From the IMG/VR virus record IMGVR_UViG_2851949629_000002: a stretch of 51,843 nt of DNA. The stretch is one strand, 5' to 3'. This document shows positions 35,814-44,197 of this stretch, one piece after another. Source of the stretch: a virus (Duplodnaviria > Heunggongvirae > Uroviricota > Caudoviricetes). A model generated the notes under the pieces. The model was not told where the DNA came from, searched no databases, and saw only the letters and a program-made list of their open reading frames with translations. Numbering within the stretch: position 1 is the stretch's first letter; each line of letters begins with the position of its first letter. Made by a program: the position numbers and the translations under genes.

Positions 35814-36239
35814 ATGGAATTACAGGACTGGCGAAAAGAACCTCGTAAAAACTATTCGAATGAATTCAAACTTCGTATGGTGGAACTGGCATCACAACCT
35901 GGAGCTTGTGTTGCACAGATTGCACGTGAAAATGGCGTCAATGATAATGTTATTTTCAAATGGCTCAGGCTCTGGCAGAACGAAGGGCGTGTTTCGCGGC
36001 GTCTTCCGGTAACGACCTCTTCTGACACTGGCGTTGAATTATTACCTGTAGAAATAACGCCGGATGAGCAGAAAGAACCTGTGGCGGCCATTGCGCCGTC
36101 TTTATCCACTTCCACTCAGACCAGAGTCAGTGCCAGTTCCTGCAAGGTGGAATTCCGTCACGGTAACATGACGCTGGAAAATCCATCGCCAGAGCTGCTC
36201 ACAGTGTTGATCCGTGAACTGACCGGGAGGGGAAGATGA
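35814..36239 (+). CDS. IS66 accessory protein OrfA (TnpA)
   Basis: 141-aa ORF, first gene of the IS66 three-gene arrangement. Confidence 0.8.
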   Translation: MELQDWRKEPRKNYSNEFKLRMVELASQPGACVAQIARENGVNDNVIFKWLRLWQNEGRVSRRLPVTTSSDTGVELLPVEITPDEQKEPVAAIAPSLSTSTQTRVSASSCKVEFRHGNMTLENPSPELLTVLIRELTGRGR

Positions 36240-36586
36240 TCTCACTCCCATCAGGTACCCGTATCTGGCTCGTTGCCGGCGTTACCGATATGCGTAAATC
36301 CTTCAACGGACTGGGAGAACAGGTACAACATGTGCTGAATGATAATCCCTTCTCCGGTCACCTGTTTATCTTCCGTGGCCGACGGGGTGACACCGTCAAA
36401 ATTCTTTGGGCTGATGCTGATGGTCTGTGCCTGTTCACCAAACGCCTGGAGGAAGGCCAGTTTATCTGGCCTGCGGTACGTGACGGCAAGGTATCCATTA
36501 CCCGCTCGCAACTGGCAATGCTCCTCGATAAGCTGGACTGGCGTCAGCCAAAAACATCCAGCCGTAACTCACTGACAATGTTGTAA
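36236..36586 (+). CDS. IS66 accessory protein OrfB (TnpB)
   Basis: 116-aa ORF MISLPSGTRIWLVAGVTDMRKSFNGLGEQ... overlapping orfA stop. Confidence 0.85.
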   Translation: MISLPSGTRIWLVAGVTDMRKSFNGLGEQVQHVLNDNPFSGHLFIFRGRRGDTVKILWADADGLCLFTKRLEEGQFIWPAVRDGKVSITRSQLAMLLDKLDWRQPKTSSRNSLTML

Positions 36587-36616
36587 AAAACTCCTGACCG
36601 CATTATAAAAACGGTC

Positions 36617-38230
36617 ATGAGTCAGAAATACCTCATTCGCATCGCAGAGCTGGAAAGGTTGCTCTCTGAGCAGGCTGAAGCCCTCCGTCAGAAAGACCAG
36701 CAACTGAGTCTGGTTGAAGAGACGGAAGCCTTCCTGCGCTCTGCACTGACACGTGCCGAAGAAAAGATCGAAGAAGATGAACGGGAAATAGAACATCTGC
36801 GGGCTCAGATAGAAAAACTGCGCCGGATGCTGTTCGGTACCCGTTCTGAAAAACTGCGTCGTGAAGTTGAACTGGCTGAGGCTCTGCTGAAACAACGTGA
36901 ACAGGACAGCGATCGTTACAGTGGGCGGGAAGACGATCCTCAGGTTCCCCGCCAGTTGCGACAGTCGCGCCATCGTCGTCCGTTACCGGCACACCTTCCC
37001 CGTGAAATACACCGCCTGGAGCCAGAAGAAAGCTGTTGCCCGGAGTGTGGCGGTGAGCTGGATTATCTGGGGGAAGTCAGCGCTGAACAGCTGGAACTGG
37101 TGAGCAGTGCCCTGAAAGTGATCCGCACAGAACGGGTAAAAAAAGCCTGTACAAAATGTGACTGTATTGTTGAAGCACCGGCGCCGTCCCGCCCGATAGA
37201 GCGTGGTATCGCGGGCCCCGGATTACTTGCCCGCGTGTTAACGGGAAAATACTGCGAACATCTGCCACTGTATCGTCAGAGTGAAATCTTTGCCCGCCAG
37301 GGTGTCGAACTGAGCCGGGCCTTACTCTCCAACTGGGTTGACGCGTGCTGCCAGTTAATGACACCGGTGAATGATGCCCTGTACCGTTATGTAATGAACA
37401 CCCGCAAGGTTCACACTGATGACACACCGGTAAAGGTACTGGCACCGGGTCAGAAAAAGGCGAAAACAGGGCGTATCTGGACGTATGTCCGGGATGATCG
37501 CAATGTGGGTTCGTCATCTCCTCCAGCGGTCTGGTTCGCGTACTCGCCGAACCGGCAGGGGAAACACCCGGAGCAACACCTCCGCCCCTTCCGGGGTATC
37601 CTGCAGGCGGATGCGTTCACAGGTTACGACAGGTTGTTCAGTGCAGAACGTGAAGGTGGTGCACTGACAGAAGTTGCGTGCTGGGCCCATGCCCGGCGAA
37701 AAATCCACGATGTATACATCAGCAGCAAAAGTGCGACGGCAGAAGAAGCCCTGAAGCGAATCAGTGAACTGTACGCCATCGAGGATGAAATACGGGGATT
37801 ACCGGAGTCAGAGCGTCTTGCCGTCAGGCAGCAGCGAAGCAAAGTGTTACTGACGTCGCTGCATGAATGGATGGTGGAGAAGAATGGTACGCTGTCGAAA
37901 AAATCCAGACTGGGCGAAGCGTTCAGCTATGTACTGAATCAGTGGGATGCCCTCTGTTATTACAGTGATGACGGTCTGGCGGAGGCGGATAATAATGCTG
38001 CGGAAAGAGCGCTTCGTGCAGTCTGTCTCGGAAAGAAAAACTTTATGTTCTTCGGCAGCGATCACGGCGGCGAGCGAGGAGCACTGTTGTACGGGCTGAT
38101 CAGCACCTGCCGACTGAACGGTATCGATCCGGAAGCGTATCTGCGCCATATCCTGAGCGTACTGCCGGAATGGCCTTCCAACCGAGTTGACGAACTCCTG
38201 CCATGGAACGTAGTACTCACCAATAAATAA
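36617..38230 (+). CDS. IS66 transposase TnpC
   Basis: 537-aa ORF with N-terminal coiled-coil, CxxC zinc motifs and DDE-type core. Confidence 0.85.
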   Translation: MSQKYLIRIAELERLLSEQAEALRQKDQQLSLVEETEAFLRSALTRAEEKIEEDEREIEHLRAQIEKLRRMLFGTRSEKLRREVELAEALLKQREQDSDRYSGREDDPQVPRQLRQSRHRRPLPAHLPREIHRLEPEESCCPECGGELDYLGEVSAEQLELVSSALKVIRTERVKKACTKCDCIVEAPAPSRPIERGIAGPGLLARVLTGKYCEHLPLYRQSEIFARQGVELSRALLSNWVDACCQLMTPVNDALYRYVMNTRKVHTDDTPVKVLAPGQKKAKTGRIWTYVRDDRNVGSSSPPAVWFAYSPNRQGKHPEQHLRPFRGILQADAFTGYDRLFSAEREGGALTEVACWAHARRKIHDVYISSKSATAEEALKRISELYAIEDEIRGLPESERLAVRQQRSKVLLTSLHEWMVEKNGTLSKKSRLGEAFSYVLNQWDALCYYSDDGLAEADNNAAERALRAVCLGKKNFMFFGSDHGGERGALLYGLISTCRLNGIDPEAYLRHILSVLPEWPSNRVDELLPWNVVLTNK

Positions 38231-38256
38231 GCGTCAATACGGCACTCCGTTAACGC

Positions 38257-38520
38257 TTACGCCTGTTCAACCTCACTACGCAGTTTTTCAGAACGGGTTC
38301 CGAACAGCATCCGGCGCAGTTTTTCTATCTGAGCCCGCAGATGCTCTATTTCTCGCTCATCTTCTTCGATCTTTTCTTCGGCACGTGCCAGTGCAGAGCG
38401 CAGGAAGGCCTCCGTCTCTTCAACCAGACTCAGTTGCTGGTCTTTCTGACGGAGGGCTTCAGCCTGCTCAGAGAGCAGCCTTTCCAGCTCAGCGATGCGA
38501 ATGAGGTATTTCTGACCCAT
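38257..38520 (-). pseudogene. Outer IS66 TnpC N-terminal fragment (87 codons)
   Basis: MGQKYLIRIAELERLLSEQAEALRQKDQQL... ends at the inner IS junction. Confidence 0.8.
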
Positions 38521-38550
38521 GGCCGTTTTTATAATCCGGCCCGGCGTTTT

Positions 38551-38901
38551 TTACAACATTGTCAGTGCGTTAAGGCGGGATGTTTTTGGCTGACGCCAGT
38601 CCAGCTTATCGAGGAGCATTGCCAGTTGCGAGCGGGTAATGGATATCTTACCGTCATGCACCGCAGGCCAGATAAACTGACCTTCCTCAAGGCGTTTGGT
38701 GAACAGGCACAGACCATCAGCATCAGCCCACAGGATTTTAATCGTGTCTCCCCGTCGGCCACGGAAGATAAACAGGTGACCGGAGAAGGGGTTATCATCC
38801 AGCACATGCTGTATCTGCTCCCCCAGACCGTTGAAGGATTTACGCATATCAGTAACGCCGGCAACGAGCCAGATACGGGTACCTGATGGGAGTGAAATCA
38901 T
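38551..38901 (-). CDS. Outer IS66 OrfB (TnpB)
   Basis: 116-aa ORF ~90% similar to the inner orfB. Confidence 0.8.
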   Translation of the reverse strand: MISLPSGTRIWLVAGVTDMRKSFNGLGEQIQHVLDDNPFSGHLFIFRGRRGDTIKILWADADGLCLFTKRLEEGQFIWPAVHDGKISITRSQLAMLLDKLDWRQPKTSRLNALTML

Positions 38902-39335
38902 CGTCCCCTCCCGGTCAGCTCACGGATCAACACCGTGAGCAGCTCTGGTGAAGGATTTTCCAGCATCATTTTACCGTAATGGAATTCCACATGGCAGGAA
39001 GCTGCACAAGCAACTGATAATGCCTCCGGAGCAGGAGCATCTGTAGCACAGCGCGGGGTGTCGATAAGTTCCACTGGAACCAGAGTCGGAGAGGCCGGAA
39101 AAGATTGTGATACTGTAGGGCCTACAATAGTTGGAGGCATTCTACGAGAAATACGTCCTTCTCTTTGCCAGAGGCGTAGCCATTTAAAAATCAGGTTGTT
39201 ATCAACGCCATGTTCCCGGGCCAGTTGTGCAACATTGGCATTTGGTTTCGAAGCCAGTTCAACCATATGAAGTTTAAATTCATTAGAAAATATCCGGCGG
39301 GTTCCGGAGCGCCAGTCTGTAGGTTTATCCATCAA
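38898..39335 (-). CDS. Outer IS66 OrfA (TnpA)
   Basis: 145-aa ORF, diverged homologue of the inner orfA. Confidence 0.75.
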   Translation of the reverse strand: MMDKPTDWRSGTRRIFSNEFKLHMVELASKPNANVAQLAREHGVDNNLIFKWLRLWQREGRISRRMPPTIVGPTVSQSFPASPTLVPVELIDTPRCATDAPAPEALSVACAASCHVEFHYGKMMLENPSPELLTVLIRELTGRGR

Positions 39336-39415
39336 TAGAACTCCGTCTAATTTAGAAGGAGCTCTAATTTAGTCTGCAAGGAGCAAGTGTTACAGACGGC
39401 ATTGGCTTTACGCTT

Positions 39416-39869
39416 ACGTAATAGTGTCTTTTGTGTCCCCCTGTTTTGAGGGATAGCAATCCCCCAATTTGAGGGATGTTTTATCCCTCGTTTTAGGGGA
39501 TTGTCCCTCGTTTTGAGGGATACACCATTCTGAGATGTTTTTATTTGGTCCAAACATGCCGCCTTGCTGCTTGATAATATTCATTCTGACGAGTTCTAAC
39601 TTGGCTTCATTGCACCGTTTGACAGGTAACTTTGTAATCTCGCTAAGTTGAGAATCGGTGATTCTGTCCATTGGTTTATTCCACCCATAGGTTTTACGCA
39701 GAATGGCAAGCAGCACTTTAAACTGTCGCTTGGTCAGATCTGCGCCCGAATAAGCCTCAAGCAGCATATTTGATAGTCTGGCGTAACCATCATCGAGATC
39801 TGCCACATTACGCTCCTGTCCGGCAAAGTTACCTCTGCCGAAGTTGAGTATTTTTGCTGTATTTGTCAT
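39416..39869 (-). pseudogene. O: Replication initiator O, N-terminal fragment
   Basis: MTNTAKILNFGRGNFAGQERNVADLDDGYARLSNMLLEAYSGADLTKRQF..., lambda O N-terminus; reading frame runs into the IS. Confidence 0.85.
39436..39521. repeat. ori-lambda iterons (four ~18-bp O-binding repeats)
   Basis: Four copies of TCCCTC-N6-GAGGGA-like inverted units inside the O N-terminal coding region. Confidence 0.8.
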
Positions 39870-40195: not shown

Positions 40196-40274
40196 ATGTA
40201 AGTATTTCCTTAGATAACAATTGATTGAATGTATGCAAATAAATGCATACACCATAGGTGTGGTTTAATTGGAT

Positions 40275-40289
40275 GCCCTTTTTCAGGGC
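40275..40289 (-). promoter_or_regulatory. nutR boxB hairpin
   Basis: GCCCTGAAAAAGGGC on the minus strand between cro and cII. Confidence 0.7.
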
Positions 40290-40313
40290 GGGGATGGGTA
40301 AGAGCGGGGTTAT

Positions 40314-40523
<210 letters not shown>

Positions 40524-40540
40524 TTAGTACATGCAACTAT

Positions 40541-40604
40541 TATCACCGCCAGAGGTAAAATAGTCAACACGCACGGTGTTAGATATTTATCCCTTGCGGT
40601 GATA
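40541..40604. promoter_or_regulatory. Right operator OR1-OR2-OR3 with overlapping pR and pRM
   Basis: TATCACCGCCAGAGGTA (40541-40557), CAACACGCACGGTGTTA (40565-40581), TATCCCTTGCGGTGATA (40588-40604). Confidence 0.9.
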
Positions 40605-40611
40605 GATTTAA

Positions 40612-41328
<717 letters not shown>

Positions 41329-41345
41329 TAGGAAGTAAGTTTTAT

Positions 41346-41375
41346 GTTGACGGCACAGTCAACTTGGCATAGATT
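41346..41375 (+). promoter_or_regulatory. Candidate sigma70 promoter with -35 inside a perfect palindrome GTTGAC-N6-GTCAAC
   Basis: TTGACG, 17-nt spacer, TAGATT; palindrome at 41346-41363. Confidence 0.3.
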
Positions 41376-41385
41376 AATTAAACCA

Positions 41386-41446
41386 AGCCCAGCCCCGTTC
41401 GCAGACAATTGTTAATATCTGCATAACGGCTCTGGGCTATTTTTTT
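41386..41446 (+). terminator. Long interrupted hairpin plus T7 run (terminator/attenuator-like leader) ending 9 nt before the NYN-gene ATG
   Basis: AGCCCAGCCCCGTT ... AACGGCTCTGGGCT followed by TTTTTTT. Confidence 0.45.
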
Positions 41447-41455
41447 GGGACTCTT

Positions 41456-42313
41456 ATGAAGAAAGCAGCAATTTTAATTGATGCGGGTTTTTTCATGCAG
41501 CGTGTTCATGCTACGCATCGTAAACACTTCGCCGAGCATGAACTGACTGCGCAATGCATAATGAAAGTAATATGGTCAATGGTTCTTTCCCATCTTAATG
41601 GAAAACGTCAATCACAAGAACGTAGGGAACCGCTTGAGCTTTATAGAATTTACTTCTATGACTGTCCACCACTCGACATTCAAACACGCCTTCCACTTCC
41701 TGAGCCTGGCAATAAGACGCCTGGTCGCAAGAATTTCAAACTCGAAAAATCATATATTCTGAGAACGGAGCTGCATGAAGAGTTAAGAAAAACTCGAAAA
41801 ACAGCCTTAAGATTAGGGAATCTTGTTGATAATAAGCGATGGCAACTAACTACATTCTCCCTTGATGCTCTGATGAAAGGAACGAAAAAATGGGATGAAC
41901 TGACAAATGATGATTTTTACTATGACATCAAACAAAAACAAGTTGATATCAAGCTAGGGATGGATATCACGACTTTAGCTTATGAAAAACTTGTTGATGT
42001 AATTGTCCTTGTTGCTGGGGACTCAGACTTTGTGCCTGCCGCCAAACACGCCAGAATTAAAGGTATTGATTTTATTCTTGATCCACTAAGACAGAATGTT
42101 ACCCCATCACTGTCAGAGCACATTGATGGAGTTCAGTCATACAGCTTGATATCAGGACTTGCCGATGCTTTACATGTTGAGCCAGACCCGGCACCTGACT
42201 GGTGGGAAGATCGAAAAAAAGGCAAGCCTAGAGGAAAAAACAATAGCGGTAAACGCAGGTATGGAAACACTCAAGCTGAGTCTGCAAAGAAACATCAAAG
42301 AAATAAACGATAA
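41456..42313 (+). CDS. NYN/LabA-like (PIN-fold) predicted ribonuclease with basic C-terminal tail, in the slot lambda uses for rexA-rexB
   Basis: 285-aa ORF; motifs AILIDAGFF, VDIKLGMDI, VLVAGDSDFVPAAKHARIKGIDFILDP; Lys/Arg-rich last ~35 aa; not RexA or RexB. Confidence 0.6.
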   Translation: MKKAAILIDAGFFMQRVHATHRKHFAEHELTAQCIMKVIWSMVLSHLNGKRQSQERREPLELYRIYFYDCPPLDIQTRLPLPEPGNKTPGRKNFKLEKSYILRTELHEELRKTRKTALRLGNLVDNKRWQLTTFSLDALMKGTKKWDELTNDDFYYDIKQKQVDIKLGMDITTLAYEKLVDVIVLVAGDSDFVPAAKHARIKGIDFILDPLRQNVTPSLSEHIDGVQSYSLISGLADALHVEPDPAPDWWEDRKKGKPRGKNNSGKRRYGNTQAESAKKHQRNKR

Positions 42314-42322
42314 TCCCATCAA

Positions 42323-42348
42323 CCCGGCCACCGAGCCGGGTTTTCTTT
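42323..42348 (+). terminator. Rho-independent terminator after the NYN gene
   Basis: CCCGGC-CACCGA-GCCGGG hairpin followed by TTTTCTTT. Confidence 0.6.
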
Positions 42349-42503
42349 GCCTCACGATCGCCCCACCTAAAAACACATAACCAATTGTATTTATTTTAAA
42401 ATTAATAGGTGCAACTCACTAAACAACGCAATTCTGATCTCTCGATCACCTCCCAAGCCACACAACCCTGCAAAAAATAAATCTATATAAAAAACATACA
42501 GAT

Positions 42504-42566
42504 AACCATCTGCGGTGATAAATTATCTCTGGCGGTGTTGACACAAATACCACTAGCGGTGATACT
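42504..42566 (+). promoter_or_regulatory. Left operator OL3-OL2-OL1 and promoter pL
   Basis: AACCATCTGCGGTGATA, TATCTCTGGCGGTGTTG, then TTGACA...TACCACTAGCGGTGATACT. Confidence 0.85.
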
Positions 42567-42605
42567 AAACACACCAGCAGGACGCACTAACCCACATGAA
42601 GGTGA

Positions 42606-42636
42606 TGCTCTTAAAAATTAAGCCCTGAAGAAGGGC
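42606..42636 (+). promoter_or_regulatory. nutL (boxA-like then boxB GCCCTGAAGAAGGGC)
   Basis: TGCTCTTAA then GCCCTGAAGAAGGGC hairpin upstream of N. Confidence 0.8.
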
Positions 42637-42794
42637 AGCATTCAAAGCAGAAGGCTTTGGGGTGTGTGATACGAAACGAAACATTGGCCGGAAGTGCGAA
42701 TCCGGATTAGCTGCAAATGAGCCAATCGTGGGGTGTTTTCGTTCAGGACTACGACTCCCACACACCACCAAAGCTAACTGACAAGAGAATCCAG

Positions 42795-43659
<865 letters not shown>

Positions 43660-43828: not shown

Positions 43829-44197
43829 GTGTCAAACATCAAAAAATACATCATTGATTACGACTGGAAAGCATCAATAGAAATTGAAATCGACCATGAC
43901 GTAATGACAGAGGAAAAACTTCACCAGATTAATAATTTCTGGTCAGACTCTGAATACCGACTCAATAAACACGGCTCTGTATTAAATGCTGTATTAATCA
44001 TGCTGGCGCAACATGCTCTGCTTATAGCAATTTCAAGCGACTTAAATGCATATGGTGTTGTGTGTGAGTTCGACTGGAATGATGGAAATGGTCAGGAAGG
44101 ATGGCCTCCAATGGATGGTAGCGAAGGAATAAGAATTACCGATATCGATACATCAGGAATATTTGATTCAGATGATATGGCTATCAAGGCCGCCTGA
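43829..44197 (+). CDS. ea10: Ea10-like early protein
   Basis: 122-aa GTG-initiated ORF; length and position as for lambda ea10; sequence identity only from memory. Confidence 0.6.
   Translation: MSNIKKYIIDYDWKASIEIEIDHDVMTEEKLHQINNFWSDSEYRLNKHGSVLNAVLIMLAQHALLIAISSDLNAYGVVCEFDWNDGNGQEGWPPMDGSEGIRITDIDTSGIFDSDDMAIKAA

Follow-up and report, generated by a model that had tools for sequence, protein, structure and literature searches.

A predicted NYN nuclease gene with a conserved structured leader RNA in place of rexAB in a lambda-type prophage

The immunity region and the gene in the rexAB slot

The subject of this work is a stretch of promoter, leader RNA and nuclease gene in the immunity region of IMGVR_UViG_2851949629_000002, a viral DNA record of 51,843 nucleotides (nt) that we refer to, at its whole length, as the window. 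The window contains a prophage of the lambda type in which the immunity region is inverted; nutL and N lie, like cI and pL, on the plus strand (Table 1). Comparison with lambda by blastn (NC_001416) revealed two blocks of high similarity, one of 97.6% identity (window 40255-41332, lambda 38300-37223) and one of 92.6% identity (window 42321-43118, lambda 35826-35037), confirming that the surroundings of the gene are of the lambda type, as had been claimed in an earlier reading of the sequence (the original prediction). The homology stops 4 nt beyond the cI stop codon and is back exactly at window position 42321, which corresponds to the rexB stop codon (lambda 35826). Between these breakpoints the window has 988 base pairs (bp), where lambda has 1,396 bp comprising the cI-rexA spacer, rexA and rexB. 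The single open reading frame (ORF) noticed earlier in the rexAB slot is therefore part of an exact swap between the cI stop codon and the t_imm terminator, and it takes the position downstream of the repressor gene that characterizes Rex-type exclusion systems. Because homology to lambda resumes at 42321, the terminator that follows the gene is lambda's own t_imm and not incoming DNA; the proposal that it serves as a second insulator of the module had to be abandoned, since it was simply kept from the phage backbone.

Table 1. Features of the immunity region, in window coordinates.
Feature	Position	Strand	Remarks
Inserted cassette (promoter, leader RNA, NYN gene)	41333..42320	+	replaces lambda 37222-35827; blastn breakpoints
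Predicted sigma70-type promoter, TTGACG-17-TAGATT	41347..41375	+	9/12 matches
Perfect palindrome GTTGAC-N6-GTCAAC, overlapping the -35 hexamer	41346..41363	.	unique in window
Conserved leader RNA	41380..41448	+	hairpin 41386-41438, then A, U7; intrinsic-terminator shape
Predicted NYN (LabA-like, COG1432-type) PIN-fold nuclease gene	41456..42313	+	285 amino acids (aa), intact, all conserved acidic residues
Lambda t_imm terminator	42321..42349	+	hairpin 42321-42342, AACCCGGC...GCCGGGTT, then T-rich tail; right breakpoint at its 5' edge
cI repressor gene (context)	40615..41328	+	237-aa ORF; RefSeq: LexA family protein WP_001274756.1
cro	40314-40514	-	pR on - strand too
pL promoter inside OL operators (context)	42538..42566	+	TTGACA-17-GATACT, 10/12 matches; within the 92.6% lambda-identical block

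The ORF was found as originally described, with the motifs AILIDAGFF, VDIKLGMDI and VLVAGDSDFVPAAKHARIKGIDFILDP and a Lys/Arg-rich tail. Its product matched the Pfam NYN family (PF01936) with 36.8 bits, against a gathering score of 24.2, over residues 158-205 only, and the NCBIfam model TIGR00288 weakly over residues 100-207, far under the cutoff of that model. The AlphaFold model of the protein is confident (predicted local distance difference test, pLDDT, 87) and has the PIN-like alpha/beta/alpha fold of the NYN type; the only sequence-profile matches, as well as the top structural ones, were NYN/LabA proteins. Together, these results agree with the NYN/PIN call made at the outset and indicate that the assignment is sound. 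In an alignment of 40 sequences reaching down to 41% identity the acidic, candidate metal-binding and catalytic residues D9, D69, D164, D170, D189 and D191 were invariant, and a P-x-W-W motif was nearly so in the gamma-proteobacterial branch, pointing to an intact NYN-fold nuclease gene under purifying selection. The basic C-terminal tail is present in the window protein but is not conserved among its relatives, being variable in general and acidic or neutral in those of Pseudomonas. Most probably, the product is a metal-dependent NYN-fold endonuclease acting as a ribonuclease (RNase).

The protein belongs to PHROG 5783 (E = 1.5e-119), a group of unknown function, and the gene is already public as "NYN domain-containing protein" in the phages ev099 and 2B8 and in many Escherichia coli genomes. 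Since it is already annotated, the protein alone is an ordinary new family member. RefSeq/PGAP splits intact ORFs of 100% identical DNA into an N-terminal 'pseudogene, missing C-terminus' and a separate short 'NYN domain-containing protein' of 146 or 117 aa (loci L001, 4128-4985, and L299, 1628-2485, equivalent to window 41456-42313), whereas phage records give one gene. This split probably reflects a common truncated allele that was taken as evidence.

The leader RNA and its promoter

The most informative feature of the locus is the leader that precedes the gene. In the window its hairpin comprises a 7-bp outer stem, an internal loop, a 5-bp middle stem, a 5-bp inner stem and a 12-nt apical loop; an A (41439) and seven T residues (41440-41446) follow, ending 9 nt ahead of the ATG. 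A stem and a U-run between promoter and coding sequence is the arrangement of intrinsic terminators and attenuators. The predicted folding energy of -25.9 kcal/mol (z = -3.6) was matched by none of 200 shuffled sequences. Among homologues in viral contigs the hairpin and T-run are kept down to about 40% protein identity, with compensatory changes visible. For 13 gamma-proteobacterial leaders, RNAalifold predicted 17 pairs, 12 of which showed compensatory double changes. A covariance model built from these 13 leaders (R1) recognized the window leader with 84.5 bits (E = 2e-20) and gave one match per locus, always directly upstream of the gene, including Pseudomonas aeruginosa loci on which it was not trained (57 bits).

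The pair of RNA and nuclease is found in many bacterial phyla. A scan of one genome per species, across about 100,000 species genomes, identified at least 587 species that encode an NYN relative, with a sporadic distribution. The 80 best relatives, which were taken for the analysis of leaders, span Gamma-, Alpha- and Betaproteobacteria, Acidobacteriota, Bacteroidota, Verrucomicrobiota, Thermaceae, Spirochaetes and others. A stable hairpin with a T-run ending 5-50 nt before the start codon was present in 65 of 79 species-level genomes. With a second model, R2, the element was detected immediately before the gene at 59 of the 80 species loci, and another 11 were recognized by R1 (70/80); seven Bacteroidota-type leaders, recognized by eye, have an extra apical hairpin. 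The canonical form has a hairpin of about 52 nt, with an 8-bp GC-rich outer stem, an asymmetric internal loop, a variable inner helix of 6-8 bp and a U-run. The 5' side of the internal loop reads C-A-G-U-A-(A/C) and the 3' side C-G-A-N-C, each letter being found in 18-25 of 28 sequences (canonical loop 5' CAGUAMG / 3' CCGAN), and four alignment columns are T in at least 26 of the 28 leaders.

Covariation was assessed on a MAFFT alignment of 28 cross-phylum leaders that was fitted to no structure. With a hand-specified structure, 83% of the cells pair, compared with 42-54% when partners are slid, and the covariation score of 0.50 (against at most 0.22) was reached by none of 500 shuffles. RNAalifold recovered only the outer stem on this alignment; the inner helix is the hand-specified part, tested by pair counts. 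On the R2-derived alignment, which leans towards the model, 13 of 14 pairs covary. These results show that the leader is a conserved, covarying structured RNA element that accompanies the nuclease family across phyla. The terminator-like hairpin behind a promoter, on which the original prediction relied, is real as an arrangement, and a conserved RNA element takes the place of the insulator that it was thought to be. With its canonical shape, a GC-rich stem followed by U7, the hairpin could also be a plain intrinsic terminator or insulator, carried along without any specific function; such an element would not be expected to keep a loop sequence, a three-part architecture and a fixed distance from the promoter across phyla while its helices covary, nor to be specific to one gene family, and we regard this explanation as extremely improbable.

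The promoter is also a recurrent part of the unit. In the window the predicted transcription start (about 41382-41383) lies 3-4 nt ahead of the hairpin, and sigma70-like promoters with at least 9 of 12 matches were predicted at 25 of 30 R1-type and 23 of 41 R2-type loci, against 7-8% of shuffles. From the end of the -10 hexamer to the outer stem there are 8-12 nt in R1-type and 11-14 nt in R2-type loci. This spacing implies that the transcript would start 2-6 nt before the hairpin, leaving no room for an alternative antiterminator. The same observation bears on the idea that the leader is a riboswitch-like or factor-sensing attenuator, whose signal would be a small molecule or some factor from the host or a phage, such as an antiterminator. 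As in some ligand-sensing terminators, conserved unpaired nucleotides are held in a covarying scaffold just ahead of the U-run; the element is nevertheless small (about 52 nt), lacks the upstream sequence from which an antiterminator could form, is tied to one protein family and matched no riboswitch class of Rfam, which makes such a sensor quite improbable.

The -35 hexamer of the window promoter does lie, as was pointed out originally, inside a perfect palindrome. This is a modestly improbable feature, since at least one match with no more than one mismatch was found in 13 of 100 window shuffles. A TTGAC-N4-9-GTCAA inverted repeat at the -35 position, with varied spacers, was present in 12 of the 30 enterobacterial and pseudomonad (R1-type) loci, compared with 7% of shuffled controls, and in 5 of 41 canonical-type loci, the background level. 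The palindrome may be an operator for some factor; the cassette contains no regulator gene that could act at it. A role as a universal operator was rejected, because the repeat is enriched only in the enterobacterial and pseudomonad lineage.

In Amylibacter the promoter and the RNA are multiplied. One locus (L160, 2052-2476) contains the whole unit of promoter, hairpin and T-tail three times, with a period of 145 nt, for one NYN gene, and a second Amylibacter genome (L168, 2221-2476) has two such copies before one NYN gene. The tandem copies differ in the inner helix.

The association of the leader with the gene is specific. Of 5,426 complete E. coli genomes, 275 contain the leader, and precisely these 275 contain the gene. 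In 829 kb of control DNA, made up of metagenomic loci that carry the bare loop signature by chance, R2 had one match, located at the only locus with an NYN homologue (16 nt downstream). Metagenome contigs were also scanned with the loop signature GGCAGTAMG-N15-45-GCCGAWCC, whose matches were almost all due to chance: the outer stem was formed by 2 of 80, and the sole full hairpin with a T-run precedes an NYN gene, a result of low power when taken alone. Regarding novelty, none of the 4227 covariance models of Rfam 15 matched the window leader at E <= 10 or 11 canonical-form loci at E <= 1. In the literature searched, no paper connected NYN genes with an RNA motif, with type III toxin-antitoxin systems or with an anti-phage function that had been validated, and no rex-slot system of the NYN type was found, in line with what had been supposed. 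The leader therefore appears to represent an undescribed RNA class tied to a widespread, uncharacterized nuclease subfamily.

Spread of the cassette and its possible function

The cassette was found with the same left junction behind three different repressors: lambda cI (the window and phage ev099), the hybrid, 70%-identical cI of phage 2B8, and an unrelated S24 repressor that in Stx2a phages is followed by a DUF3024 ORF. In Stx2_EH0505 (locus L298, 1371-2500) an S24/HTH repressor of 235 aa and a DUF3024 ORF of 113 aa precede the cassette, and directly in front of it some 20 nt from the 3' end of lambda cI (GAAGAGACGTTTGGGTGA) are preserved. This remnant is a recombination scar that reveals the origin of the cassette. 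A 59%-identical paralogue (P0016, 287 aa; L093, 4001-4864), with an R1-type leader of its own, resides in lambdoid prophages of E. albertii and E. coli on the opposite strand, between the Q antiterminator gene and genes for a DNA methylase and lysis. This is the slot where Stx phages hold their stx genes.

Other Gammaproteobacteria carry the gene in further mobile settings. In Proteus it adjoins glmS, a hotspot; one contig (L087, 5477-8795) has, after the NYN gene, an ORF with a BrxA domain, fragments of integrase genes, a dfrA-like gene and an acetyltransferase gene, a region that looks like an integron or a Tn7-like resistance insertion. In P. aeruginosa its neighbour is HigBA, on plasmid-like DNA. 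In Pseudomonas paraglycinae the NYN gene is followed, after about 1.3 kb, by a P1-type C4 antisense RNA (L138, 2566-2762; RF01695, 85.9 bits) with its a1/b1 target (RF03163), which suggests a P1-like prophage or plasmid as the location of this copy. A comparison of neighbouring genes showed no partner gene conserved beside the nuclease. The three repressor contexts and the second prophage slot indicate that promoter, RNA and nuclease move as one cassette.

The interpretation we favour, with a probability of about 0.5, is that window positions 41333-42320 constitute a self-contained, mobile, RNA-controlled NYN nuclease cassette that was recombined into the rexAB slot. Judging from the anatomy of the locus, transcription would start 2-6 nt before the hairpin, at a promoter whose position is conserved; the hairpin and U-run would end most transcripts as an RNA of about 60 nt, so that only read-through would encode the nuclease, and the same hairpin would stop most of the pRM/pRE transcripts leaving cI. 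Because the loop and the architecture have stayed with a single family of proteins in all these phyla even as the helices covary, the nuclease most likely recognizes its own leader, and such recognition would result in negative control of its synthesis, in sequestration of the enzyme, or in both. In the lysogen, the cassette might then act as a moron providing a tightly limited, potentially toxic RNase with an exclusion, abortive infection or stabilizing toxin-like function, as its position hints. The anti-phage or toxin-like role, for which position is the argument, is plausible but unsupported.

Several observations weigh against this interpretation. The leader of the window is derived, the AGUA/CGA letters of the canonical loop having changed in it, and Pseudomonas and Edwardsiella intermediates link it to the canonical form. 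PADLOC-DB v2.0.0 contained no full-length match to a known or candidate defence system; the weak matches, to HEC-09 (E = 2e-4, 46 residues) and to a generic NYN model (E = 1.4e-3), covered the catalytic motif only. HEC-09, a distantly related NYN candidate, protected against no phage tested (10.1101/2024.01.29.577857), and "NYND" (WP_001399740.1, 215 aa, E. coli), an NYN protein that may or may not be related to the 285-aa protein, was cloned for DefensePredictor and was not validated. Ten canonical loci from other phyla have unrelated chromosomal flanks, among them recA, sugar-modification genes and radical SAM enzymes, with no hallmark of a mobile element or a defence island, and two RNA-less members lie between icd or purK/purC on one side and housekeeping genes on the other. 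Among the 275 E. coli carriers, 74 keep at least 80% of the gene and about 200 have it truncated, in most cases after about 350 nt, implying that its function is dispensable there. In O157:H7 EC4115 (L300, 3124-4746) an IS1203/IS629 insertion interrupts the gene some 350 nt from its start; the leader is retained, and the locus lies in a decayed lambda-like prophage with the same cI protein.

Many of these points would be expected if the nuclease were a cellular enzyme of RNA processing or turnover that has an ordinary autoregulatory leader, and if its prophage copy were a hitch-hiking moron without any role in exclusion. Such an enzyme would suit the chromosomal neighbourhoods of the canonical and RNA-less members and the truncation of the gene in E. 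coli lineages that include O157:H7, and it agrees with the PIN-superfamily classification, where the LabA-like NYN group is listed as of unknown function, with suggested links to transfer RNA and ribosomal RNA processing (PMC5499597). It is less easily reconciled with a distribution as sporadic as at least 587 matches among about 100,000 species genomes, with copies in lambdoid moron slots, plasmid-like regions and the glmS hotspot, or with a cassette that moves between repressor contexts. Sporadic spread, moron slots and mobility characterize genes that are accessory, selfish or involved in conflict, and not core RNases, and we hold this alternative to be possible, at well under even odds.

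The substrate of the enzyme is a related matter, as the structural neighbours of the protein include FEN-like (flap endonuclease-like) folds, another point against the RNase cassette proposed here since it makes a DNA substrate possible. The product could accordingly be a structure-specific, FEN-like DNA nuclease directed at replicating or recombining phage DNA, with a leader that only limits expression. The top matches and the only profile matches are nevertheless NYN/LabA proteins, Pfam detected no H3TH or helical-arch DNA-binding module in the 285-aa protein, and MARF1 and similar characterized NYN relatives are RNases; a DNA nuclease is thus most unlikely.

The other serious alternative is a type III-like toxin-antitoxin or abortive infection system, in which the short leader RNA inhibits the NYN RNase in trans, and depletion of the RNA, through transcription shut-off by an infecting phage or loss of the cassette, frees the nuclease. 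In ToxIN-type loci a promoter, an RNA and a terminator come before the nuclease gene, and this order is found, and conserved, at the loci studied here: in the window the RNA lies upstream of the nuclease gene, parted from it by a predicted intrinsic terminator, with the ATG 9 nt after U7. There is no protein partner either, and a search of the RNA-less loci for a small protein gene replacing the RNA, as a protein antitoxin would, found none. The prophage, plasmid and hotspot sites in Gammaproteobacteria are also in keeping with such a system, and so are the two- to three-fold promoter-RNA units of Amylibacter, which fit selection on RNA dosage and lean slightly towards the view that dosage matters. 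On the other hand, no tandem repeats were found in window positions 41200-41520, and most loci have no short ones; repeats occur only in Amylibacter, with each 145-nt repeat a whole promoter-plus-hairpin unit. The fold is NYN/PIN-like rather than that of ToxN, AbiQ or CptN, the other NYN candidates (HEC-09 and NYND) gave no phage protection, and no NYN domain was linked to type III systems in the literature. We treat a type III-like system as a tentative possibility. Given its different toxin fold and the lack of short tandem repeats, we do not class the module with the type III systems.

A more specific proposal along these lines, which we consider unlikely, is that the leader acts in trans as an RNA antitoxin or inhibitor, with the conserved AGUA/CGA internal loop as its binding site for the NYN RNase, defining a hitherto unrecognized, phylum-spanning toxin-antitoxin or abortive infection family with one member in the lambda rex slot. 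The AGUA/GAA-like internal loop presumably resembles loop-E or sarcin-ricin motifs, and under this proposal it may, by that likeness, imitate the real target of the enzyme. Autoregulation or attenuation in cis and inhibition by an RNA in trans are inseparable by sequence alone.

The cassette proposed here matters because the lambda immunity region is among the best-studied pieces of DNA and rexAB is the textbook exclusion system. Its exact exchange for an unrelated single-gene cassette shows that accessory functions can be swapped at the rex slot. For the bacterial LabA-like NYN nucleases, numerous and without a known function, the dedicated covarying 5' RNA of one widespread subfamily, a likely ligand, regulator or substrate mimic of the nuclease, gives an experimental handle. 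If the RNA inhibits the nuclease, RNA-based toxin-antitoxin and abortive infection systems would gain a new toxin fold and a new RNA architecture, and a short RNA-protein recognition pair would extend from Proteobacteria to Bacteroidota and Acidobacteriota. Should the leader do no more than autoregulate, it would still represent a new class of cis-regulatory RNA absent from Rfam. The value of the finding consequently lies in the leader, which makes the function of both RNA and nuclease directly testable.

Two further features of the prophage were observed outside the cassette. Gene O is shortened to 151 aa (39414-39869, Pfam Phage_rep_O), compared with 299 aa in lambda, because of IS66-family DNA (region 35814-39869). 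A complete plus-strand IS66-type element with ORFs of 141, 116 and 537 aa (35814-38230) appears to interrupt a minus-strand IS66 element (orf1, 38898-39335; TnpB_IS66, 38551-38901; a transposase fragment of 87 aa, 38257-38520). The prophage is probably replication-defective. In addition, a minus-strand ORF of 156 aa (43111-43581), located between N and the DUF2528 gene (43829-44197), had no Pfam match and is the hypothetical protein WP_129546988.1 in RefSeq; it may be another accessory (moron) gene of the pL operon region.

Comparison with known systems

The cassette shares with RexA-RexB of lambda the slot downstream of cI and upstream of t_imm and OL, the orientation on the cI strand, and an accessory nature, neither being needed for lysogeny. 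The two differ in their products and in their expression. RexA-RexB consists of a DNA-binding sensor and a membrane protein, whereas the cassette encodes one NYN nuclease with no relation to them in sequence or fold, and while rexA and rexB are simply co-transcribed with cI, the cassette has its own predicted promoter and a terminator-like leader.

With the type III systems ToxIN, AbiQ and CptIN the cassette has in common the order of promoter, structured RNA, intrinsic terminator and endonuclease gene, the lack of a protein antitoxin and the residence on mobile elements. Its RNA is a single hairpin, in contrast to the short tandem repeats of type III antitoxin RNAs, and its nuclease has the NYN fold instead of the ToxN fold.

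In its catalytic fold and conserved Asp constellation the protein resembles LabA-like NYN proteins (PF01936, COG1432; PDB 2qip) and the NYN domain of MARF1 (PDB 5yaa). The cassette subfamily, at 245-290 aa, is larger than LabA-like NYN proteins, with insertions between the core elements, and its gamma-proteobacterial branch has in addition the P-x-W-W motif and a variable tail. Unlike LabA-like and MARF1 NYN proteins, the cassette nuclease has no OST-HTH or other accessory domain. A dedicated leader RNA, present in the cassette subfamily, is unreported for the LabA-like NYN group.

Two defence candidates are also comparable. HEC-09, embedded in Hma (10.1101/2024.01.29.577857), is an NYN candidate with conserved catalytic aspartates, like the cassette protein; it differs in having an N-terminal HTH-like domain and in being located inside Hachiman loci, and the similarity is confined to the catalytic motif. 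DS-3 (DefensePredictor, WP_022645725.1) is a single-gene E. coli nuclease of the PIN superfamily with catalytic residues at both ends and no antitoxin gene, as in the cassette; unlike the cassette protein it is VapC-like, and descriptions of it mention no leader RNA. That DS-3 ("PIN split between N and C terminus") could be the 285-aa protein itself was ruled out by BLASTP (E = 0.38).

Finally, RNase E, RNase III and Regnase-1, which cleaves its own mRNA, are proteins that limit their own synthesis through their own transcript. In the 5' untranslated region of rne, the rnc leader, ribosomal-protein leaders and Regnase-1, a structured element in the own transcript limits synthesis, as we infer for the cassette. 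What sets the cassette apart from these autoregulatory leaders is that its element is the terminator hairpin itself, placed at the extreme 5' end of the transcript of a sporadic accessory nuclease.

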